Shown piece after piece: positions 23,444 through 64,000 of a stretch of 64,000 nucleotides of DNA (its first letter is position 1; each line of letters opens with the position of its first letter). The translations under genes and the position numbers were made by a program. Location: NCBI GenBank assembly GCA_041394345.1, contig JAWKIN010000003.1, positions 62,737 through 126,736 on the forward strand, in the 5' to 3' direction. The notes beneath the pieces were generated by a model. It was not told the DNA's origin, did not search any database, and saw only the letters and a program-made list of their open reading frames with translations. This stretch comes from Acidimicrobiales bacterium (GTDB lineage: Bacteria > Actinomycetota > Acidimicrobiia > Acidimicrobiales > SZUA-35).

Positions 23444-24917
23444 CTACTCCGGCACGGTGGCGGTCACAAAGTCGCTTAGGCGACTCGCCGACGCCGGCTC
23501 GAGTCGGGCCCGGAGCCGCATGCCGTCGTCTTCGGTCGTCTCGACCAACACCTCGCCTTCCCGGTGCAGGGCAGCGAGCATGTCACCTCGGGCCCACGGG
23601 ATGAAAAGCTCGTAGATACTCGATTGCGCCCGTATCCGATCGCCAATGGCAAGCAGCAGCTTGTCGATGCCTTCGCCGGTCTGAGCCGAGACAGCGACCG
23701 ATCCGTCGTTGTGGCTCAAATGCCATGGCAGATCAGTGGCAATATCGGCCTTATTGAAGACCATGAGCTCGGGAATATCTTTTGCCCCGATCTCAGACAA
23801 CACTTCGCGGACCGCCTCGATATGGCCACCGACGTCGGTGCCGGCGCCGTCGATCACGTGGATCAGCAGATCGGCTTCGGCCGCAACTTCGAGCGTCGAT
23901 TTGAACGCTTCAACCAGTTGGTGAGGGAGTTTCTTGACGAACCCAACGGTGTCGGTAAGCAGGATCGTTTCGCCGCCCGGCAACTGCGCCTGCTTCGTGG
24001 TCGGGTCGACGGTCGCGAATAGCTGGTCTTCCACCTTCACATTTGACCCCGTGAGCGCATTGAGAAGGGTCGACTTACCGGCGTTTGTGTAACCGACGAT
24101 CGACACAACCTTGTAGGGCGATCGAGTACGGGCCTTGCGTTGGTTCGCTCGGCGGTCGGCGATGTTTGCGAGATCTCGCTCAAGTTTGTGGATGCGGCGG
24201 ACGAGCCGGCGCCGGTCGACCTCAAGCTGTGTCTCGCCGGGACCGCGTGTGCCAATGCCACCGGCCTGCTGCGAGAAGTCCTTCTTGCCGCGAAGGCGCG
24301 GCAGTCGATAGCGCAGCTGAGCAAGCTCAACTTGCGCCTTACCTTCGGCTGATGTTGCGTGCTGAGCGAAGATGTCGAGGATGACACCCGTGCGGTCAAG
24401 CGCCGTTCGTTTGAGAATGCGCTCGAGGGTGAACTGTTGGGCGGGCGTGAGCACGTCATCAAAGACGACGGTGTCGACGTCATGGGTCAGACACGCCTCA
24501 AGAATCTCCTGCACCTTGCCCTTGCCGACATAGGTCGACGCATGTGGTGAGTCGCGCTTCTGTGTGATGCGCTCGACGACGTCGGCGCCCGCGGTGTCAA
24601 TGAGCAGCTCGAGTTCGTCGAGCGACTGCTCCATCTGGAGTTCGGTGGTCCGCCCTTGCAGCAACCCGACGACGACAATTCGCTCACGGAAACCGCGATC
24701 AAGGAAACCACCTTCGACCGTTGCACCAAACTCGCCGAAGGCACCGCGGTGGTGTCGTTTGGATCGAGGTGCAGATCGCCGGCCCCGTCGTCGGCCCCGT
24801 CATCGGACCCGGTGAAGATGAACTCATCGCCGTCATCGACGAAATCGCTCGAGTCGAAGCCAACGCCGTCAGGGTTGTCGTCTGGTTCGAGACCCCAGTC
24901 GAGTTTGTCGTAACCAT
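23444..24917 (-). pseudogene. hflX: GTPase HflX (core intact; acidic N-terminal extension needs frame changes)
   Basis: ORF 23444..24664 carries VSIVGYTNAGKSTLLNALTG..DQLFATVDPTT..LTDTVGFV..FNKAD. Upstream, FGATVEGGFLDRGFRERIVVVGLLQGR continues in frame. An acidic segment (GYDKLDWGLEPDDNPDGVGFDSSDFVDDGDEF) sits in another frame, reachable from ATG 24917 if one base is restored. Confidence 0.85.
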
Positions 24918-25717
24918 GGGAAAACCGAGAGCGAAGCGATGTGGTAGGTCGCTGGGCCGGTGAGGTGGACGGTGTCGGTGACCTCAACGACGGCTTCGAC
25001 CTCCAGGCATTTGAACGGTGACCGCTCCATGCGCCAGTCCCCAGTTGGCAGCAGCAACCGCGGCGGCACAAGCGCCCGAGCCACAGGCATCGGTGATTCC
25101 CGACCCTCGTTCCCATACATAGAGCGACAGATGGTCGGGCCGATCAACTTCAATGAAATGCACGTTGATGCCGCTCGATAGCTGGCTTCGACAACGGGCC
25201 TGACAGCAGCCAGATCGACGGCTGCTGGATCATCGACCAGCGCGACGAGGTGGGGATTGCCCATGTCGACGCTGGCCTGGCGGATGGGCGAAACACCAGT
25301 GGAGTCCCATCGGTCGAAGTCGCCAGGACCAGGCTTGGCCGCACCCATGTCCACCCGGACCTGACGGGTGTCGCCCTCCGCTGGCTGGATCTCGAGTTGA
25401 CGAAGACCGGCGTCAGTGGCGATTCGCATCGTCGTCGCACCGAGTCCAGCGTGGTCGGCCAATGCCTGGCCGAGGCAACGAATGCCGTTGCCAGAAATTT
25501 CGGCCCTACTGCCATCGGCGTTGTAGAGCACCATGGACCAGTCGGCCTCGGTGTCGCCTGGGGCTTTTGTCGCCACAATCAGTCCGTCCGCGCCGACACC
25601 CAGATGCCGGTTGCACCAGTGGACAGCGTCATCGGCCGTCAAGGAGATCTCGGGTTCGATGGCAATCAGGAAGTCGTTGCCCAGACCGTGGTGTTTTGTA
25701 AGCGAAATCAAAGTCAA
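24869..25717 (-). pseudogene. dapF: Diaminopimelate epimerase DapF (at least 2 frame changes)
   Basis: ORF 24869..25807 carries LTKHHGLGNDFLIA...GADGLIV...YNADGSRAEISGNGIRCLG...VDMGNPHLV. The C-terminal third is scrambled, but ...VHLTGPATYHIA is recovered. The candidate start is TTG at 25717. Confidence 0.85.
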
Positions 25718-25746
25718 GAAGTGCAGTGTCGCAGCAAATGGGGCTG

Positions 25747-26721
25747 TTAGCTCGAAATTATTGCACCGACCGACCGGTTCACGTCGGCAGGTTCGCCCTT
25801 GGCCCAAATCGCCTGCGCCCGCTCGACCAAATCGGGCGCCGTCGCCGGCAGCCAGTGGATGCGCGGATCGCGCCGGAACCAGCGTTGTTGGCGTCTCGCA
25901 AATCGGTGCGTGCGCCGCTTGGCTTCATCGAGCGCCTCGTCCAGCGTGCAATGACCTTCCAAATGCTTGATGAGCTCGCGATAGCCGAGGGCTTGACGGG
26001 CTGGCCGTGACAGGTCGGTCCTGAGCAGCGCCTCGACTTCGGCGAGGAAGCCGGCCGCCATCTGGTGTTCGTATCGCTCGTCGATTCGGCGATCCATCAG
26101 CTCCCTATCGATCTCCAGGCCGATCTGCACGAAGCGGCTGGGCGGATAGGCATCGACACCGGGACCAAAGCTCGAGAAGGGACGACCGGATCCGACGCAC
26201 ACCTCAAGGGCTCGCATGACCCGGCGCCGGTTGTTCGGTTCCATTTTGGCCGCTGCCATTGGGTCGAGTGCGTGGAGTCGTTGCCACAGTTTCTCGGTGT
26301 GTGGTTCGCTCTCGAGCTCCAGAACAACCTCGGGGTAGGTCCCCGGCAGCTCGAACGCATCGACGATCGAGCGAATGTAAAGCCCAGTGCCGCCGGCGAG
26401 GATAAACGGGGTACTGGTCGCGTCGAGCGACTCGATGACGGGTCGGATCGCATCGTTGTAGGTCGCCACGCCACACTCTTCACTCGCGTCGACAATATCT
26501 ATGCCGTGGTGCACGACGCTGAGTCGCTCGGCCTCTGTCGGCTTCGCCGTTCCGATATCCATCCGGGCATAGACCGCCATGGCGTCGGCTGAAACTATGT
26601 GGGCTTCCGCCGTCGCTTGGGCGAGCGCAAGGGCGAGGCCCGTCTTACCCGAGGCCGTTGGCCCCAGCACGACAAGCGGCGGGCGATTGTCTGGTGTCGT
26701 CGACGCAATCTGCTCGGTCAC
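25747..26721 (-). CDS. miaA: tRNA dimethylallyltransferase MiaA
   Basis: This is the C-terminal 325 codons of ORF 25747..27423: VTEQIASTTPDNRPPLVVLGPTASGKTGLALALA...IVSADAMAVYARMDIGTAKP...ILAGGTGLYIRS...ARRQQRWFRRD. The GTG start at 26721 overlaps the stop of the upstream gene (GTGA). Confidence 0.9.
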   Translation of the reverse strand: MTEQIASTTPDNRPPLVVLGPTASGKTGLALALAQATAEAHIVSADAMAVYARMDIGTAKPTEAERLSVVHHGIDIVDASEECGVATYNDAIRPVIESLDATSTPFILAGGTGLYIRSIVDAFELPGTYPEVVLELESEPHTEKLWQRLHALDPMAAAKMEPNNRRRVMRALEVCVGSGRPFSSFGPGVDAYPPSRFVQIGLEIDRELMDRRIDERYEHQMAAGFLAEVEALLRTDLSRPARQALGYRELIKHLEGHCTLDEALDEAKRRTHRFARRQQRWFRRDPRIHWLPATAPDLVERAQAIWAKGEPADVNRSVGAIISS

Positions 26722-51131: not shown

Positions 51132-53959
51132 CTAGTCCGGCATCCGGTAGCCGGGCGGCGGGGCCAAGGCTGGGTCGAACTCGTCGTCGGCGAACTCATC
51201 GTCGACACCAATCGAGAGATCACTCACCTGGTCGTCGCTCGTGCGTTGGTGGCGCTCGGCCGTCTCATGCTCGACGGCGTCGATGTCGAAGACCGACGTG
51301 GGCGCCGGCCGATCGAGGTCGATGTCGTCAGACGCGCTCTCGAACGGCTCGTCGTCGGGGACACCCCGTTGGGACGGGGCGACGGCGGGCGATTTCAGAA
51401 CCTGAGATACGTTGAGCGCGAGTTGATCGTTGACGAGGTCGGCCGTGCTCAAGGCGGCGATCGACGGGTTTGGCACCACGGTCGTTTGCTGCATCGCTCG
51501 CATTTTGGCTGGCCAGCGTCCGTTGTCGAGGTCTTCGGGGGTCATGAGCACGTCTCGCGCCTTCGACCCGATCGACGGACCAACGACCCCACGTTCTTCG
51601 AGCAAGTCCATCAGGCGTCCGGCACGGGCAAAGCCAACGCGAAGCTTGCGCTGAAGCATCGAGGTCGACCCAAGTTGAGACCGGACGATGAGCTCCATGG
51701 CCTGCATCATGAGATCGTCGTCGTCCTCGTCGCCGCTCGTTCCACCCGGGATAATCGCCGCTCCCTCGGCCTGCTCTTCGCCGAGAACACGTGAGTCGTA
51801 GGCGACGGCCGGTGCCTGGCCTTTCCAATGGGCCGCAATTTCCGACACTTCCTCTTCGGTGACCCAAGCACCTTGGAAACGAGTTGGGGTGCTGGTCGAG
51901 CCATCGAGTAGGAGGCCGTCGCCCCGCCCAACCAGGCGTTCGGCGCCCTGCTGATCGAGCACAACCCGGCTGTCGGTGAGCGACGACACGGCGAACGCGA
52001 GGCGTGCGGGAACGTTGGCCTTGATGAGACCGGTGATCACATTGGTCGACGGCCGCTGGGTTGCGATCACGAGGTGAATACCGACCGCACGAGCCTTCTG
52101 GGCGATGCGGCAAATCGACTCTTCAACGTCTCGAGCCGCAACCATCATGAGGTCGGCGAGCTCGTCGAGAATGATGACGATGTAGCTCAGCTTCGCGTAG
52201 TCGACGTGCTGGCCATCGGCCGTTGGCCGAGGGGCAAAACGGCCTTCGTCGACCGCGGAGTTATACCCGTCGAGATCTCGCACGCCGACCTCGGAGAGCA
52301 GGTCGTATCGCCGCTCCATCTCGCGCACGGCCCAGGCCAGCGCATTGGCGGCCTTCTTCGGGTCGGTCACCACTTCGGTCAGCAGGTGGGGCAAGCCGGC
52401 GTATTGGGTGAGTTCGACCCGCTTCGGATCGACCAGGATGAGCCGAACCTCGTCGGGAGTCGAGCGCATCAGTAGTGAGGTGAGCATCGAATTGATGCAG
52501 CTCGACTTACCAGAGCCGGTTTGGCCGGCGACCAGAAGGTGAGGCATCTTGGCCAGATTGGCCATGACGGTCTTGCCCGTGATGTCTCGACCGAGCGTTA
52601 CTTCGAGCGGATGCTTGGCTGCTTTCGCCTCATCGGACCAGAGCAGGTCGCCAACACTGATGATTTGACGGTCAACGTTTGGCACCTCGACGCCAATCGC
52701 TTGCTTCCCCGGAATGGGGGCAAGGATACGAACGTCGGGGGTCGCCATGGCGTAGGCGATGTCCTTGTTGAGACTGGTAACTCGGGCCACCTTGACGCCG
52801 GGGCCAAGCTCGAGTTCGAACCGGCTAACCGTCGGTCCAACGACAACGCCAACAAGACGAGTCTCGACACCATGCTCGGCCAACGCGCTCGAGCTGGCGA
52901 CCACGCTTGACCGCCCCCGATCGACATCGTGCGACTCGGACCGCACGAGAATGTCCATCGATGGCAGGGTCCAATCGCCCTTGATAGGCGCAGGCCCGAA
53001 TGAGGCAGCGGCGTATCCATGACCTGAGCCGACGGCACCTCGATGATGGGTTGGGGTCCCGTACCGTCTGACCACGACATATCAGCGCCGACCGGGCCGT
53101 CGTCGGCGTCGAAGTCGTAGGGGCCAGTCGGGGCCTCGACCGCGGGCTCATAGTCATCGGACGGGTCGTGGGTTGCGTCAAACCTGTTGCCACGTAGATC
53201 GATGTATAGCTCGTCGTCCTCTGGTCGGCCGCTCAGCGGGGCCGTCTGCTCAAGATCGAGCAACGGTTCCTGAATGCCGCGCTGGGCGTCGACCCTGGTT
53301 TGGGGTTCGGCGCGCGCAAAACGCTCCCGCAGGTCATCGATCCATGCGCCGAGCTTGCTCGAAAACTCGCCGCCGTGACCGTGGAGCCGGTCGGCGATCG
53401 GGGCGACCGACATGCCGGTCAACAAGATGCCGGCGATGAGGGCAAGCACCAGCGTCCAGAGCACTTCGCCCCAGCTCCCGAGCACAAACTCCATGGCGGC
53501 CCCGATGCGAATGCCGATATGGCCGCCTGCCTTCGATACCTCGTCGACCGAGGCGCTGTTTGTTGGGCGCCCGCCAATCATGTCGAGTGTCGCAAAGGCC
53601 ACGATCACCATGGCGGCGTAGGCCGCAATCTCGCCCAGGCCAGGCGCTTCACGTTGCTTCTTGGTTTTCTTGACCGGCGAGCGGAGCCGATTCCAGCCAA
53701 GCGCGAGGAGTCCGAGGGGCAGCAGGTAGCGGAGGCGGCCAATGAAGTAGCCAGTGAGATCGGCGAGACCGTTTCCGACAACGCCCATCGTGGGGGTGTA
53801 GAGGCCAAGCGCCAGGGTCAGGCCCAACGCGATGAGCACGATTCCTTGCACCTCGCGCCGGTTCTGAGCGCGCTTCTTTTTTCCCGCCACCGAGGTGCGG
53901 GAAGGCGTTCGTCCGCCCGCGGCGCCCCGACCGGCTGTTGTCCGATTCGATGTAGCCAC
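51132..53959 (-). pseudogene. ftsK: DNA translocase FtsK/SpoIIIE (one frame change near 53030)
   Basis: ORF 52598..53959 is the N-terminal membrane domain. ORF 51132..53075 carries the motor domain LLVAGQTGSGKSSCINSML..VIILDELADLMM..IATQRPS and the gamma wHTH domain (MELIVRSQLGSTSMLQRKLRVGFARAGRLMDLLEERGVVGP). Confidence 0.95.
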
Positions 53960-57888: not shown

Positions 57889-58779
57889 CAGAGTGACCGC
57901 CCGAGTCCGGTGAGCACCGACGTGGCCCGCTCATTGAGCGAGTCTGGTGCGGGACCCATGGGCGATCGGCAAGTGCCAACGTCGAGACCGAGCAAGTTCA
58001 TAAGTACCTTTGATGGAACGGGATTTGGTGCGTCGTCTGATGTCTCGAATTGGTAACTCGGGATCATCAAGGCGTTGAGGCGACGAGCCTCAGCAACATC
58101 GCCGCGTGCGAATGCGTCAAACATGGCCGACATCTCACGGCCGGCCCAGTGGGTGGCAACGCCGATGACGCCGATGGCGCCCACCGCGAGCAGAGGCAGC
58201 GTCAGCTTGTCTTCGCCGGAATAGACCATGCCTGATCCATCGAGCTTGGCGATGAGTTGGGCCGTTTCAGCGACATCGCCCGCCGCATCAGCAGCCCCGA
58301 CGATGATGTTGTCGACTTCGAAGAGCGACAGCAGAGTATCGAGGCTGATCTTGCGTCCCGAGCGGACGGGAATGTCGTAGAGGACGACCGGCTTTTCGGT
58401 CGCCGCGGCGACGGCGGTGAAATGGGCGTGCAGGCCACTTGTGATGGGCGGTTGTAATAGGGCGTAGCGCCAGAATGGCGTCGGCACCAGCGGCGTCGGC
58501 CATTTCGGTGAGTTCGACCGCCGCTTTGGTGTCGTTGCTCCCGGCGCCTGCGATGACGACGTGATCGGGAATGGCCCCCGCGGACTGCCGTGATGAGGTC
58601 GACCTGCTCGCGGTGGGTCAGCGTGGCCGATTCACCGGTCGTACCAGCGACGACAACACCATCATTGCCGTGCTCAACGAGATAGCGGGCGAGCTGTTGG
58701 GCCCCGTCGAGGGTTGAGGGACCCGTCGGCCCCAAACGGGAGTCACCATGGCGGTGAGAACCGTGCCGAATTGTGGCAT
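57888..58779 (-). pseudogene. dapA: 4-Hydroxy-tetrahydrodipicolinate synthase (at least 2 frame changes)
   Basis: From ATG 58779, [15 protein letters not shown] is my own translation. ORF 58202..58948 carries [39 protein letters not shown] 57888..58487 carries [13 protein letters not shown].... Confidence 0.9.
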
Positions 58780-59321
58780 TAGTGCGCTTTCTCTGAGGCC
58801 CGGTCGATGCCGAGAGATGCCAACAAATCTTCATGCATCTCGAACCAGACCGTGTGGTACGACTCCATGATCCCGGCTTGGTGAACCATTCGGTCTCGCC
58901 CGCTCGGACCTTTTCGAGCGCCGAGGTGGCTTGAAACGTGGATCGCAAATCGGCTGAGCTGCTCGCCGGGTGGCACAGATCGGCTGGACTTTGGCGTCAA
59001 TGGCAGCAAGCTCGGCGACAACGCGGCGTCGTAGTCGGCGTCGGCGTGGTCGTTGAGTTCGTTTTCGCCCTTCACCTGCCAGTCGGTGCAGACCTGGAGC
59101 ATTGCTCCATTGAGCGGAAGGAAGTCGTCAGTAACACTGCTGCACGACAGCTCAGGCCTGGCGTCGAGTTCTTCTCGCAACAGGCGCTCGTTTTCGGCAC
59201 GCCCCTCAGCGGTCATCGTCCAGCCCGTTGCGGCGTCCGTCGCGATGGGGTGGAATACGCTTCGGCCGCTTTGACGAGCGCAGCGTCGGTCGTCGACACT
59301 CCAGGCCTTGAAGTTCGGCAA
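58779..59321 (-). pseudogene. Hypothetical protein, possibly winged-helix N-terminus; frameshifted; not ThyX
   Basis: ORF 58779..59321, with pieces in other frames, carries ...TAEGRAENERLLREELDA...NGAMLQVCTDWQVKGENELNDHADADYDAA...[17 protein letters not shown]...[21 protein letters not shown]. Its TAA overlaps the dapA ATG (TAATG). It lacks the ThyX RHR..S motif. Confidence 0.3.
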
Positions 59322-59416
59322 TAGTGTCAGCGCCGGTGAAGCCCTTGAGGCGAAGATAACAGGTGCCAGCAGTTCGATCGAGGAGTCGTTAGCCGCAAGC
59401 GCCCACCCTACCAGTG

Positions 59417-60180
59417 TCAGTCGGTGGAGTCCGAGGCGATCTCAGACGATCGCTGCCGGACAAGCTTGCGAAGGAGGTGAAGGTAGGCGCCAGCTCCAAG
59501 AATGGTGAAGGTGAGTCGTGCGCGGCGTACGAGAAGTAGGTGCCATTCGTCAAGGGGGGTAGCTCAAGCGCCTCAGGCACCACGTCGGCCGCGCCCACCT
59601 CAGGGAGCGGCACCTCGGTCGGCTCAAACTGGACCCACGCCGAAACGGCATTGATGCCAAATCGGTCGGCGAGCAGTGCCACGTCCGGGCGAGGAACCCG
59701 CTCACCGGTTCCCGTATCGGTCGCACCAGGCGCCATCCTTCACGCCTCGATATCCGCCACGGAACCAGCCGTCGAGATGTGTGGGATCAAGTGGCGGGCA
59801 GTCACCTCGTCGCGCAGGATGAAGCCACGGTTGACGAGAACATCCTCGCCATCGTCGGTCACGAAATGCGCCCACGACCAGTCGCCAGCGACGCCGTCGA
59901 GCGAACGGTTGGCCACTCGGGTCAGCTCGTCCTCGACATAGTGACCAGTGTCGGACACCGGCTGGAAGGCGATCTCGTCTGGCGCCAGGTCATGAATCTC
60001 ACTGATCGGCACCGGCGCCAGCTGTGCTCGGGCCTCAACGAGCGCATTCGGCGTCTTTTTCTCGTCGAGCCGGCGGAGCTGCCAAACGGCCCAAACGAAC
60101 GCAATAGCGCCAACAAACAAATGAGACAACAACCATTTCGGCCGGAGGAGGAAACGCCAGTCGCCAATCACAACGGCCAA
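59417..60180 (-). pseudogene. SURF1-family cytochrome oxidase assembly protein (in-frame TGA at 59740 plus a 3' frame change)
   Basis: ORF 59740..60180 carries RPKWLLSHLFVGAIAFVWAVWQLRRLDEKK...DVLVNRGFI. ORF 59389..59736 continues in the same frame (...VALLADRFGINAVSAWVQFEP...LPPL). The tail ...LSYA-like/TM segment and the stop at 59417 are in another frame. Confidence 0.7.
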
Positions 60181-60294
60181 GGCTAGTGGCCGGGAGCAGA
60201 CTTAGCGTGTCGAGGCGGCGCACTCGCATGTGCCAGGGTCAACAGTCACGTGGCGCCAACCCGCTGACCACAATTCGCCGTACCCTACTCCCCT

Positions 60295-60897
60295 ATGAAA
60301 CTCGAGTATCAGGTCGACCCGCCATCCTGGCTCGGGCGTCTCGTCGTCGGTCTCATCGCGGTGTCATTCGTGGCCGCGTGGGCCAGCAGTCTGCTACTCG
60401 CCAACTTCATCGACCAGCACCCGCTCGCCCTGATTGGTCTGGGACCAAGCGATCGCAACCTTGCGCTGACCGTCAACGAGGTCGACCGGGTCTGGTACTA
60501 CGTGGTTGGGCTCACCCGCCACCTGTCGACCGACCCGTTATTTTATCTCGTTGGCTATTGGTACGGCGACAATGCGGTGGCGTGGGTGGCCAAGCGAAGC
60601 AAGTCGTTTGGTGAGTCCGCCGACGAGATCATCCCCCAGTTTCGGAGGTGGTCCTGGGCAGCCGTCTTCCTCATGCCGTTCAACATTGTTTGCCTGCTGG
60701 CCGGGGCCGCTGGCTTGCGCTTCCGCACGTTCCTCGCCGTCAACATCACTTGACGCCTGACCCGCTTGTTTGTGATCTCGCAGTTTGCGTCGTTTTTCGA
60801 CGGCCAGATCTCGGGCGTCGGTGAGTTCATCATCGAAACCGTGTGCCCGTGTTCGTGGTCAGTCTTGTGCTTGTCGGCTGGACCATCTATGGGGTAG
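60295..60897 (+). pseudogene. VTT/DedA-like (SNARE-associated) membrane protein (in-frame TGA at 60751; 3' end uncertain)
   Basis: ORF 60295..60753 carries ...LIGLGPSDRNLALTV...DPLFYLVGYWYGDNAVAWV...VFLMPFNIVCLLAGAAGLRFRTFLAVNIT. Reading through the TGA gives RLTRLFVISQFASFFDGQI.... Confidence 0.5.
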
Positions 60898-60964
60898 CAC
60901 CGATAGATCCCAGCTCAAGAGCTCGGCGACCTGTCAAACGAGGACGGCACCCACAACCGCCGCT

Positions 60965-61012
60965 CGGGGTCAGACCCCGCGCTGCGATATGCGCGTACGG
61001 GGTCTGACCCCG
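60965..61012. terminator. 15-bp perfect inverted repeat CGGGGTCAGACCCCG-N18-CGGGGTCTGACCCCG (bidirectional terminator candidate)
   Basis: The arms are at 60965-60979 and 60998-61012. Each arm is itself a near-palindrome. It lies between convergent genes. Confidence 0.5.
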
Positions 61013-61021
61013 AAGCGCGGT

Positions 61022-62174
61022 TTAGGACAGGGCTTGGGCGAAATCGGCGATGATGTCGGCGGTCTCTTCGAGCCCGCACGACACGCGGATCGTGCCGGGC
61101 CCGATAAGCGCTTCGGCCTGCTCGTCAGGGTCGAGCGCCGCGTGGTGGTGGACGCCGGGTGTGTAACCAGCGTCTCCGGACCGCCAAGCGAGGTGGCATG
61201 GCGCGCCAGCGCGAGGCCTTCGACAAGCGTTCGCCAGCGGCGGCTTCGCCGCCGGCAAGATCGAAGGTAACAAGCCCGCCAAACGACGTTAGCTGACGCT
61301 TGGCCAACTCGTGCTGAGGATGGCTTGGCAGGCCGGGATAGCACGTCGCCGACACCTCGGGTCGGGCCGACAAGAACTCGGCCAGCGCGGCTGCGGTGGC
61401 CGATTGCTGTAGCCGAACCGGCAGGGTCCGCAATCCACGGAGGCCGCTGGTGGCATCGTGCCACCGGCGATGCGGTTGCCCAGCGCAGCACCGTCCCGAT
61501 ATCAATCGATGGTCGCGCGCTCACCCGTCACCACGCCGAGCTTCGCCGTCATTGTGCCCCGCTATCGCCTTCGTGGCCGCACGTCGGATGACGAGATCAA
61601 TGCCCGTGCCGGTGTGGCTGCTGGCCGAGCGGTGTCGCCAACGTCCCGAGTCGAGCACCTTGAACGGCCTTACGATTGAGCCGAGTTCGTCGAGGTCGAC
61701 CAGATCGAGACGGGGTTTGCTGGGCTCTCGGCCAGAATGACGTTGGTCCGGCCCGGTATCACCGCCCGAGCGTCGCACCTGGTTCGGTGCCGTCGACCCA
61801 CGTCACGTCGATACCAAATCGGGCACACGGCCCCTGCAACAGCTGCCGTGTACCGCCGAGATCTGTCGTGTGGCGACCACATGGCCGCCCGTTGAGCACA
61901 GCGCCAGCACCACGGCAGAAATGGCTCCCATCCAGGAACCAAAACGCCCGGGCAGACTCAGCGCCTTCGAGTTCGGCCATCGCGTCTTCAGATGCCGCCA
62001 CGCTGGGACTGCCGTATCGACTATAGAAGCGTTCCGACCGGGGCGAGAGCGCCATCTTGCGGGCGCTTGCGATTGACGGCTGCTCGTAGGTTGTCGAGTT
62101 CAGGATAGCGCCAGCTGGTCATCCGCTCAGCTGCGCCAACTCGTGATGGCAACGGTTGCCTGGCTCAGCGCCAT
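61022..62174 (-). pseudogene. Cys/Met-metabolism PLP-dependent enzyme (cystathionine gamma-synthase / O-acylhomoserine sulfhydrylase family; at least 4 frame changes)
   Basis: From ATG 62174: MALSQATVAI..., then ILNSTTYEQPS...FYSRYGSPSVAASEDAMAELEGAESA (ORF 61759..). YPGLPSHPQHELAKRQLTSFGGLVTFDLAGG is in ORF 61125... The C-terminus GTIRVSCGLEETADIIADFAQALS is in ORF 61022... Confidence 0.75.
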
Positions 62175-62289
62175 AGTGCCAGCGGCGGCCGCTTCAGGTG
62201 TTGACCTTTGGTCTGATTGCTGGGAATCCTCGATTACTGGACACCCAGAACGAACCTTGTTTGCTGATAAGCCAGCCGCATCGCTCAGC

Positions 62290-62365
62290 AAGTCCGAGCC
62301 TGGCACCTTGGGTGTCCGTCCTAGGTTGCCGGACCTCAGGAGAGAGTCACTCTGAATGCTTGCAC
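62290..62365 (-). ncRNA. Candidate SAM-I-clan (SAM-I / SAM-IV-like) riboswitch core in the leader of the Cys/Met PLP enzyme gene
   Basis: The minus strand reads ...CAUUCAGAGUG-ACUCUCUCCUGAGGU-CCGGCAACC-UAGGACGGACACCC-AAGGUGCCAGG-CUCGGACUUGCUGAGCG-AUGC.... It has the GAGUG / CCGGCAACC / AAGGUGCC elements in the order seen in SAM-I and SAM-IV aptamers. It lies 120-190 nt upstream of the ATG. I could not build a convincing P1. Confidence 0.4.
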
Positions 62366-62805
62366 GGCATCGTAGCGCCCAGGCGGACGGACGCAACCCA
62401 AACCTCGCGCGTGGTTTAGCAGCACCCGAATCGCTGACCGCCCTGCCGGCGGTTGGGGTGGCGATGGCGGCAATGGTGGCGGCGCGCCGCCACGGTCGGA
62501 TCGGGGCGTGGTTCGAGGATCGCGGCCACGACCGCGGCCAAGCTGACGCAGTAGTCACGGCCTACCGCGTCGAACCGACGGCGGACGTTGACCTGCCGCA
62601 ATGCCGTCGAGGTTTGATCGAGTGTCTTCTCGACCGATGCCACCGACGAGTGGTAGACGCCACGACTCGTGAGCAGGCCCGCTCAAGCACAACGGGAAGA
62701 CCGATTAGCACGAGTGGACTGACGTGCGGCCACCGCCGACACGGCTATCGCCCCACCGGCACCAACTGCTCCTCCGCCAAGCCAGGGCGTTCCGGCGTCG
62801 GTCGC

Positions 62806-63293
62806 TTACGTCAACGACCAGACAGATCGCGCCATCGCCGACATCGACCACGGCGCCGCGGACCGCCTTCGCCTTGCCCAGTCCACCCAGCCCTTGGACC
62901 GAGCGCAGCCCTCGACCAAGCTTGCCGACAACGTCGGTTCGGCGATCGGCGACATAGAGACCGTCGCCCGCTCGTCGAGCACGAAGGCCATTGGCCCGAC
63001 TCCAGCCAGTCCGAGGAGCTGTGCTTCAAGCTCGACCTCATCCTCGTGCCACTCGATTGCCAACAAGCTCCGATGGCCCGATAAGTCGATCGAGGATGTT
63101 TCGATCCTGATCGACTCGTGCCGTCTTTCGGCCAGCGCCAGCGCCAATGCGTCAAGCGGTAGACCGACCTCGTTCGCTATCTCGGCGAGTTCGGTGTCCG
63201 GAAGCCGGTGCTCATAGGCCAATGGGGTGCCGCGGCCGCCAGCTCGAACGCGCGCCGAAGCACCTGTTCGTTGGCCGAGGCACCGTCAGCCAT
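62806..63293 (-). pseudogene. Hypothetical protein (frame change near 63225; 3' part unclear)
   Basis: ATG 63293 opens MADGASANEQVLRRAFELA... and joins ORF 62806..63222 (YEHRLPDTELAEIANEVGLPLDALALALAERRHESIRIETSSIDLSGHRSLLAIEWHEDEVELEAQLLG...). I recognise no family. Confidence 0.3.
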
Positions 63294-63329
63294 TAGATAC
63301 CCATGACCTGATCGAGTCCGACCGGTAAG

Positions 63330-64000
63330 CTACGGCGTATCACCAATGCGCTTCGCCGCCAGCAGGACACCCGGCATGAACGAGTCACGGTCGATCGAGT
63401 CGTGCTTGATCGTGAGCGTCTGTCCCGCCGTGCCGAGGACCACGACCTGATGCGCTACTGCGCCCCGCATGCGCACCGAATGAATCGGAATACCAGCTGG
63501 CCCGTCCGCTCCCCTGGCTCCGTCAATCGTAAAGGACTCGGTCGGATCGGCGGCCCAATCGCTTGAGGCCAACGCCATCCGTTCGGCGGTGGCCACAGCC
63601 GTTCCAGACGGGGCGTCTACTTTCGCGTCGTGATGGGTCTCGATGATTTCTGCCGTATCGAAGAACGGCGCAGCGAGCTCGACGAAACGCATCATGAGCA
63701 CGGCACCGATCGCGAAGTTTGGCTTGTGATCAGGCAGTTGGAGCCAGTGAACTGCTTGGCGATCGCCGCGTGATCGGACTCGACGAAGCCCGAGGTACCG
63801 ACGACGAGGTGAATGTTGTTGGCTGCGCAGAACTCGATGTTTTCGCGCGTGGCCGCAATATGGGTGAAGTCGATAACGACGTCGACCTCGGCCCCGCCCT
63901 AAACGCGTCCTTCAGACGCTGGACACCCGCAAAGCTGCAGTCGACCACCCCGGTACCTCGCAGATATCGATGCCATCAAACGTTGGGTCGACGGCGGCGA
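63330..64000 (-). pseudogene. dapB: 4-Hydroxy-tetrahydrodipicolinate reductase DapB (partial at window edge; frame changes)
   Basis: ORF 63330..63701 carries ...EIIETHHDAKVDAPSGTAVATAERMA...IHSVRMRGAVAHQVVVLGTAGQTLTIKHDSIDRDSFMPGVLLA. Upstream frames give VVIDFTHIAATRENIEFCAANNIHLVVGTSGF and AAVDP.... Confidence 0.9.

Follow-up and report, generated by a model that had tools for sequence, protein, structure and literature searches.

We identify the minus-strand leader element preceding a gene for a Cys/Met-family PLP enzyme as a SAM riboswitch of the SAM-I/IV class, and we are confident in this explanation of the locus. The window, by which we mean the entire 64 kb of DNA analysed, was searched on both strands with Rfam 15. 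The SAM-I/IV family RF01725 gave the only match at gathering level: it lies on the minus strand, spans 62364-62247 and model positions 1-99, and reaches 45.7 bits against a gathering cut-off of 41.1. RF01725 was among the models that the original prediction had named as worth trying, and it exceeded its curated threshold without any sequence correction, although the margin was just 4.6 bits. In a permissive local Rfam scan it was again the top match (E = 3.8e-6), with one weaker match from the same clan discarded, and it outscored the other SAM-clan models at the locus. The element is an ordinary addition to the known SAM-I/IV class, and the standard Rfam model detects it.

A chance resemblance in GC-rich DNA would fit an Rfam score so near the threshold, and the whole-leader minimum free energy (MFE) fold does not reproduce the aptamer and has an unremarkable energy (z = -0.79). 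However, this reading is effectively refuted by an independent covariance model, R1, whose seed consisted of 21 metagenomic relatives and left the window out. R1 scores the window at 73.2 bits (E ~2e-13, span 62361-62247), and its runner-up in the 64 kb reaches 12.4 bits. Moreover, the element is kept at the same syntenic position in two orthologous leaders (L201 and L203), the gene context fits, and covariation runs throughout the structure. When applied to the 21 independent seeds, RNAalifold recovered P1 to P5 unaided, and 14 of the 33 pairs showed compensatory changes.

Within the Acidimicrobiales subgroup, RF01725 gives 45.7 bits for the window, 42.0 for L203, below 41.1 for L201, 38.5 for L003 and 34.2 for L001; the leader of L004 scores 50.4 bits. 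The Rfam SAM-I/IV model is therefore only marginally sensitive to this subgroup, some of whose orthologues fall under the threshold. By R1, L201 scores 69.3 bits and L203 65.1 bits, and the lineage model gives 65-74 bits overall.

Every part of the aptamer can be drawn (P1, P2, P3, P4, P5 and the pseudoknot PK-2, the last in the register of the crystallised aptamer 4L81). The features of the leader are as follows, in 5' to 3' order along the minus strand:

62391..62396, minus strand: -35-like hexamer TTGCGT of a predicted promoter, based on conservation in the window, L201 and L203
62369..62374, minus strand: -10-like hexamer TACGAT of the same predicted promoter, starting 15 nt upstream of P1 and matching the family TANNNT
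62250..62359, minus strand: full SAM-I/IV aptamer, P1 5' strand through PK-2 3' strand (RF01725 and R1)
62355..62359, minus strand: P1 5' strand GCAUU, partner 62282-62278 (covariance-model alignments)
62349..62354, minus strand: J1/2 core CAGAGU, matching the family-invariant GAG and the Rfam consensus AGAG
62331..62350, minus strand: P2, with G62350-C62331, then GAC(U)CUC (62348-62342) paired with GAGGUC (62337-62332) around the loop UCCU
62302..62330, minus strand: P3, GGC-AA-CCUAGG, loop ACGGACA (62319-62313), then CCC-A-AGG-U-GCC
62283..62299, minus strand: P4 hairpin GCUCGG, loop ACUUG, CUGAGC (R1 alignment)
62278..62282, minus strand: P1 3' strand GAUGC (covariance-model alignments)
62263..62276, minus strand: P5 hairpin GCUGG, loop CUUA, UCAGC (R1 alignment)
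62250..62262, minus strand: linker AAACAAG, then the PK-2 3' strand GUUCGU (62255-62250), in the 4L81 register
62237..62248, minus strand: distal element CUGGGUGUCCAG, a second P3-loop complement
62220..62231, minus strand: Shine-Dalgarno-like GAGGA (62231-62227) within GAGGAUUCCCAG, at a position homologous to the Shine-Dalgarno sequence GAGGU of L201
61022..62222, minus strand: Cys/Met-metabolism PLP enzyme gene, the predicted target of regulation (Pfam PF01053; frameshift-aware alignment)

The original prediction had pointed to three motifs in order on the minus strand, and we find all of them: GAGUG at 62352-62348, CCGGCAACC at 62332-62324 and AAGGUGCC at 62309-62302. The hairpins that it had placed at P2, P3 and P4 are likewise real and coincide with those helices in the covariance-model alignments. 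By contrast, no convincing P1 had been drawn, yet the Rfam alignment pairs GCAUU (62359-62355) with GAUGC (62282-62278). It had also taken the ATG at 62174 as the boundary of the leader; translation probably starts elsewhere, and the orthologous GUG position lies farther upstream. At its 3' end, the aptamer in fact runs as far as the PK-2 strand (62255-62250). As for its broader proposal of a SAM-I- or SAM-IV-type riboswitch, the match to RF01725 upholds it and makes the class more specific. The window has an undivided P2 together with P4, P5 and PK-2, and the element therefore belongs to SAM-I/IV rather than to SAM-I or SAM-IV.

P2 consists of a 6-bp helix and an outer G-C pair, closed by a 4-nt loop, with a single bulged U62345 and without an internal loop or kink-turn; J3/4, only 2 nt long, offers no partner for the UCCU loop. 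In orthologues the P2 helices are perfect over 6 bp (GACCUC/GAGGUC and GACCCC/GGGGUC), and the bulged U may thus be a 1-nt insertion error. Within P3, A62322 stands opposite C62310 as an A.C mismatch. The CCUAGG variant responsible is common to the window, L201, L203, L129, L158 and L161, and because it is shared in this way, it is natural rather than damage. P4 shows compensatory changes between the window (GCUCGG/CUGAGC) and L201 (GCUCGU/ACGAGC), and P5 is ~15 nt longer in L201 and L203 than in the window. In PK-2, GUUCGU pairs with loop bases ACGGAC (62319-62314) through 6 bp, one of them a G.U; the corresponding tail in L201 and L203 reads UGUUCG. All parts of the SAM-I-type core are present, namely J1/2 AGAG, the P3 segments GCAACC...AAGGUGC and a P1 that closes the junction. 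Across 55 near-invariant columns of the family, the window deviates at four, none of them in the ligand-binding core: one is the P3 CCUAGG variant, and the other three fall in the linker and PK-2 strand, where L201 and L203 differ likewise. Judged by these columns, the ligand-binding core is intact.

The original prediction had also asked that the core elements be checked in an alignment of leaders, where they do prove to be conserved: P3 and J1/2 are identical in L201 and L203, and 97 members were aligned. Relatives were collected by two routes. A search of reference genomes with the damaged downstream protein led to Acidimicrobiia and Actinomycetota MAGs, three of which (L001, L003 and L004) have RF01725 matches in their met leaders. 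A search of metagenomes with the P3 18-mer CCGGCAACCTRGGACGGA yielded about 100 genuine leaders. In the R1 alignment of 97 leaders, 95.8% of cells form standard pairs, a figure that falls to 35-50% once the 3' partners are displaced by 1-3 columns. Six of eight P2 pairs, all five modelled P4 pairs and all five P5 pairs change on both sides, and the outer pair of P1 also covaries in the family (AU 31, GC 23, GU 19). PK-2 is 93.5% paired across the family, and variant P3 loops have matching tails: the loop CGGAAG goes with CUUCCG in L004, L113 and L104, and L140 and L149 combine ACG with GCGUCC. This alignment was fitted to the model, and the invariance of P3 is partly an artefact of selection with the P3 18-mer.

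The gene downstream had been called a Cys/Met PLP enzyme, and Pfam PF01053 bears this out. After frame correction the protein is 72.6% identical to its L201 orthologue. It scores below every equivalog cut-off in NCBIfam, where it comes closest to the models for O-succinylhomoserine sulfhydrylase and methionine gamma-lyase. It is presumed to be an acyl-homoserine sulfhydrylase, and control by SAM would place this sub-equivalog enzyme in methionine/SAM metabolism. A protein search with the corrected sequence returned orthologues at 73% and 71% identity, with named matches to Acidimicrobiales and Aquihabitans lower down. The 73% orthologue lies on NCBI contig L201, which is syntenic with the window and has every gene intact, in the order dapB, hypothetical, a 198-nt gap, PLP enzyme (399 aa), VTT-domain gene (opposite strand), SURF1, hypothetical, dapA and RNase J. 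The 198-nt gap holds the riboswitch directly upstream of the PLP enzyme, and L203 also carries the riboswitch directly before this enzyme. Common to all three leaders (window, L201 and L203) are AAGCAUUCAGAG, the CCUAGG form of P3, GAUGCGG, GCAAACAA and a proximal (U/G)GUUCG. Because the orthologues carry the same arrangement, a riboswitch followed by the PLP gene without metX is native to the lineage.

In more distant relatives (L001, L003, L004 and L104), the order is riboswitch, metX, PLP gene. Thus, the riboswitch controls the PLP enzyme alone in the Acidimicrobiales lineage, while distant relatives place it before a metX-PLP operon. Across the family, leaders precede metX at 38 loci by blastp and 43-45 by tblastn. 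Genes for metY-type sulfhydrylases follow the aptamer in L129, L158, L161 and L192, with the L129 protein above the NCBIfam cut-off, and metK follows it in L125 and L136. This set of metX, metY and metK is the expected SAM regulon. From the family, we infer that the aptamer binds SAM and lowers expression of the downstream gene. The annotation changes as well: the open reading frame at 62127..62558 on the minus strand, which had been suspected of being spurious, is indeed so across the aptamer, where it reads straight through the RNA, and a regulatory RNA is now annotated in its place.

The original prediction had feared that indels might have damaged the motif. This holds for the neighbourhood, where most flanking genes carry ~5-13 frameshifts per kb, but not for the aptamer core, which is untouched. 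Frameshift-aware alignments of the window genes to the intact L201 proteins gave the following counts:

dapB: 4 frameshifts, 0 internal in-frame stops
Hypothetical (282 aa): 11 frameshifts, 0 internal in-frame stops
PLP enzyme: 13 frameshifts, 1 stop (TGA 62129-62127, collinear with an Arg codon in L201)
VTT: 2 frameshifts, 1 candidate stop
SURF1: 4 frameshifts, 1 candidate stop
Hypothetical (208 aa): 8 frameshifts, 0 internal in-frame stops
dapA: 5 frameshifts, 0 internal in-frame stops
RNase J, first 288 residues: 0 frameshifts, 0 stops, 96.5% identical to L201

The PLP gene and its six neighbours therefore hold 47 frameshifts and three candidate stops in total, a ratio that points to indel-type sequence error rather than decay. 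Neutral decay should yield at least as many substitution-derived stops. Still, the aptamer could be a real relic that regulates nothing, the 57.9-64 kb block, PLP gene included, having been pseudogenised. The 13 frameshifts and internal TGA of the PLP gene would fit such a history, as would the lack of a start codon opposite the GUG of L201 and L203 (GAGGUAGAA-GUG there vs. GAGGAUUCC-CAGC at ~62222-62219 in the window, whose nearest downstream ATG is at 62174-62172). The six neighbouring genes are broken too, while the adjacent RNase J N-terminus is clean, and the damage to dapA, dapB and dapF together can be read as loss of a biosynthetic pathway. However, the damage extends to dapA and dapB, which make a cell-wall precursor. 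The frame-corrected proteins are still 58-79% identical to those of L201, which is a different species (rnj nucleotide identity 79-87%), and these identities therefore need not reflect noise. Furthermore, the aptamer core is untouched even though the flanking DNA is only 60-77% identical to L201. We consider a relic unlikely and, from the pattern of lesions, favour local indel-type sequence error over a real pseudogene block with fair assurance.

The last 6 kb of the window appear to contain ~0.3-1.3% indel errors, for which any annotation of this region must allow. At ~1% indels, roughly one error is expected among the 115 nt of the aptamer, most obviously U62345. Elsewhere in the window, the genes for FtsK, DapF and the RNase J C-terminus are also split, and long open reading frames are common there. 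An apparently sharp identity boundary at 57.9 kb was set aside, as it is partly due to the high conservation of RNase J (79-87% nucleotide identity there). GC3 frame plots, used for mapping frameshifts, were noisy and uninformative at 63% GC.

Upstream of the aptamer, the window, L201 and L203 have in common GGTTGnnn and TAnnnT, separated by a 16-nt spacer, with T45, T46 and G47 invariant. A TANNNT starting 12-16 nt before P1 occurs in 67 of 90 family leaders, with a mode of 13 and a value of 15 in the window. A scan for the strict sigma-70 consensus called no promoter. Given a -10-like hexamer 15 nt before P1, transcription should start a few nt before the aptamer, probably from this TTGnnn-N16-TAnnnT promoter.

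A terminator scan found no intrinsic-terminator-like site, and in the clean orthologues L201 and L203 the distance from PK-2 is ~20 nt to the ribosome-binding site and ~45 nt to the start codon. The missing terminator and the ~20 nt gap together suggest that control is most likely exerted at translation initiation. Within this short interval, the second P3-loop complement is the sole expression-platform feature that rises above chance. In the window, UGGGUGUCC (62247-62239) is complementary at every position to GGACACCCA (62317-62309), which comprises the P3 loop and the inner 3' strand, and a 9-nt complement occurs in just 12 of 5000 dinucleotide shuffles of the spacer (p ~0.002). The distal element is conserved in L201 and L203. 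Beyond them, a second complement of at least 8 nt is present in eight of 34 non-redundant metX leaders, compared with 0.9 expected (maximum of four in 200 shuffles), and in L004 it follows that leader's own variant loop. Unlike the PK-2 strand, the distal copy begins with GGG, and pairing with it would therefore unzip the inner P3 helix.

These features suggest how the switch might work. As covariance models, covariation and comparison with the crystallised aptamer show, the RNA folds into a four-way junction of P1 to P4 and a 3' hairpin, P5, with PK-2 joining the tail to the P3 loop. Judging by its characterised homologues, SAM would be bound in the P1/P3 core, and when SAM is abundant the bound aptamer would repress the methionine-pathway gene, as the regulon implies. 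Without SAM, GGGUGUCC, the longer P3-loop complement between PK-2 and the Shine-Dalgarno sequence, could invade P3. With SAM, P3 and PK-2 would be locked, and GGGUGUCC could instead pair with the Shine-Dalgarno/start region, the sequence of which resembles the P3 loop. If true, ligand binding would be read out by a three-way competition for the P3 loop and not through P1.

Modelling gives this scheme a mixed reception. In silico folds with the aptamer imposed pair the distal element with the Shine-Dalgarno/start region in the window, L201 and L203. In the window, where the element can pair with 62229-62220, the predicted fold joins CUGGG.GUCC to GGAU.CCCAG and buries GAGGA in a 31-nt hairpin of -12.8 kcal/mol; a 55-nt segment folds at -16.8 kcal/mol, and 1.7% of its shuffles fold as well. 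In L201, GGUGUCCACCU is predicted to pair with AGGU and G.GACAUC, and the GUUCG-N19-GAGG spacing is identical in L201 and the window. The sequestering hairpins predicted for L201 and L203 are no more stable than those of shuffled sequences, the modelled accessibility of their start regions barely shifts between states (0.48 vs. 0.51 and 0.45 vs. 0.56), and in nine metX relatives pairing of the distal copy with the Shine-Dalgarno sequence is no better than in shuffled controls. The distal element could also just fold on itself into a small hairpin (CUGG-GUGU-CCAG), the stems of which show a compensatory change between the window (CUGG..CCAG) and the orthologues (GUGG..CCAC). We therefore offer competition for the P3 loop as the mechanism in the window only tentatively. 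That many actinobacterial SAM-I/IV riboswitches share an undescribed platform, in which a GGG-extended P3-loop complement toggles between P3 invasion and Shine-Dalgarno pairing, seems to us a somewhat more doubtful extension. The recurrence of the second complement is nonetheless a possible lead on the expression platform of these little-studied riboswitches.

More conventional platforms were also sought in the window. A classical anti-P1 element is not above chance there, with 13% of shuffles matching its complement to P1-5'/J1-2, nor is an AUG-sequestering hairpin, which 50% of shuffles match. We rejected as chance an MFE pairing of the P3 3' strand GGUGCCAG with CUGGCACU before the ATG at 62174, which is absent by eye from the orthologue leaders and has the wrong logic.

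Two other modes of regulation were weighed against translational repression. In the first, transcription would end prematurely, either through Rho or at a terminator that lacks a U-tract. Riboswitches that act through Rho are known from other bacteria, and by eye lower-GC members of the family carry intrinsic terminators directly after PK-2, the 5' arm of which complements P1-5'/J1-2 (e.g., in L108, L116, L153, L170, L172 and L175). However, the window itself has no terminator-like site, its own P1-5'/J1-2 complement is matched by 13% of shuffles, and L201 and L203 have no U-run in the ~45 nt between PK-2 and the start codon. Termination therefore seems to us a rather improbable account of this leader.

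In the second mode, the distal GGGUGUCC would be the true bound-state partner of the P3 loop, so that SAM would free the Shine-Dalgarno sequence and turn the gene on. Such a switch would suit a methionine-degrading gamma-lyase, models of which score nearly equal to the sulfhydrylase models, and the distal element pairs with the P3 loop far more strongly than the proximal strand does (-17.9 vs. -6.8 kcal/mol). Yet the conserved CAAnnAA linker stands before the proximal strand, whose register is that of 4L81, while the distal copy always starts with GGG and would unzip the inner P3 of the ligand-binding fold. In addition, distant orthologues of the enzyme are co-operonic with the biosynthetic metX, and in the family every terminator-type member that can be recognised is an OFF switch. 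An ON switch is thus very unlikely, and repression of translation when SAM is bound remains the mechanism that we prefer.

In its overall architecture, the element agrees with published descriptions of the SAM-I/IV class. SAM-I/IV variants share features of SAM-I and SAM-IV and lack the internal loop of P2 (PMC2864571), and they differ from SAM-IV in that P2 is undivided, PK-1 is absent and a P4 helix is present (PMC6890682). The window likewise combines a SAM-I-type core with an undivided P2 free of a kink-turn or PK-1, a P4, and a 3' hairpin with PK-2, and it lies in the leader of a PF01053 gene of methionine/SAM metabolism. SAM-IV (RF00634), for which a cryo-EM structure is available, has no P4 and joins PK-2 to P5 (PMC6890682). 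The window resembles it in the SAM-I-like ligand core, the P5 that follows P1, a PK-2 between the P3 loop and the 3' tail, the actinobacterial host range and presumed translational control. However, SAM-IV splits P2 into P2a and P2b and forms PK-1, whereas the window has a P4, an undivided P2 and no PK-1. With SAM-I (the S-box, RF00162), the element shares the four-way junction of P1 to P4, the core of J1/2 and P3, and the methionine regulon. By contrast, SAM-I has a kink-turn in P2 and PK-1, lacks P5 and PK-2, and usually controls an intrinsic terminator; the window has no internal loop in P2 and possesses both P5 and PK-2.

The closest point of reference is the crystallised SAM-I/IV aptamer (PDB 4L81; Trausch et al. 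2014, as cited in PMC5393176 and PMC6890682), the sequence of which is printed in the RNA-Puzzles paper (PMC5393176) and has a tail, CAACGAA-GUCCGU, that pairs with ACGGAC. The window differs from it in the lineage-specific CCUAGG, with its A.C mismatch in P3, in the linker (CAAACAA vs. CAACGAA), in the G.U of PK-2, in the bulged U of P2, which is possibly a sequence error, and in the second, extended P3-loop complement immediately downstream. Still, the P3 of the window, CCGGCAACCU(G/A)GGACGGACACCCAAGGUGC, is nearly identical to that of 4L81, and the register of PK-2 is the same, with GUUCGU in place of GUCCGU, a single C-to-U change that keeps a G.U pair.

Across the last part of the window (57,890-64,000), we counted 47 frameshifts and 3 candidate in-frame stops in seven consecutive genes, using as reference the syntenic contig L201, on which these genes are intact. 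The genes affected are, in order:

57,890-64,000: dapA, hypothetical, SURF1, VTT, the Cys/Met-metabolism PLP enzyme, hypothetical, dapB

The adjoining RNase J N-terminus (57888-57027) carries no frameshifts or stops and shares 96.5% identity with L201. The damaged block looks like a local, error-rich assembly stretch of the indel type, reaching the window end. Outside it, frameshift density is lower, yet not zero, and some genes are split here too:

51132-53959: FtsK, with its 4TM domain in one frame and its motor domains in another
24869-25807: DapF, with only one of two epimerase domains visible
about 56719: break in RNase J past the beta-CASP domain

From about 24,000 to 64,000, the gene order (dapF / miaA ... 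miaB ... ftsK ... RNase J / dapA ... dapB) is the arrangement conserved in actinobacteria. The nearest relatives of the PLP enzyme are found in Acidimicrobiales/Aquihabitans MAGs. The window thus most likely stems from an uncultured Acidimicrobiales genome without a species-level match in the reference sets. The top-scoring database homologue, P0001 (L202 746-2506, GCA_033612695.1), is a 586-aa gene call with a PF01053 domain; its additional residues point to an ORF that is over-extended or fused. The gene that follows it encodes an Fpg glycosylase, as is also the case in the more distant relative L001, and no riboswitch was detected on the 4-kb contig L202.

Genuine riboswitches of the Acidimicrobiales subgroup are missed or scored too low by Rfam RF01725, as the following loci illustrate:

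L201, 3849-3961: riboswitch before the orthologous PLP enzyme, RF01725 score below the 41.1-bit cut-off
L003, 1557-1702: riboswitch of a more distant relative, RF01725 38.5 bits
L001, 1504-1623: riboswitch of a second such relative, RF01725 34.2 bits

A lineage-specific covariance model gave these under-scored members 65-74 bits, and the Rfam seed appears short of riboswitches that carry P4 and long P5 insertions. Separately, two metagenomic copies looked defective. In L122 (6702-6792), neither P4 nor the 3' strand of P1 is present, and P5 comes directly after P3; in L115 (about 545-600), the aptamer ends past the P3 loop and gives way to unrelated AT-rich sequence. Deletion or insertion may explain these copies, as may chimeric contigs.

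Within the window leader, the P3 3' strand (GGUGCCAG, 62300-62307) is complementary to CUGGCACU (62175-62182), directly 5' of the ATG at 62174, and this pairing governs the unconstrained MFE. It is probably a coincidence, because no pairing of this type was found by eye in the orthologous L201 and L203 leaders and because it would imply ON-switch logic.

Elsewhere in the aptamer family, the lower-GC members L108, L116, L153, L170, L172, and L175 have intrinsic terminators of the classical kind (CCCGCUCUCCUGAUG...GGAGAGCGGGUUUU) immediately downstream of the aptamer, with a terminator 5' arm complementary to P1-5'/J1-2 (CAUCAGGAGAG). Coupling therefore appears to differ between lineages, a single aptamer serving two modes: termination in some lineages and, apparently, translation in high-GC ones.
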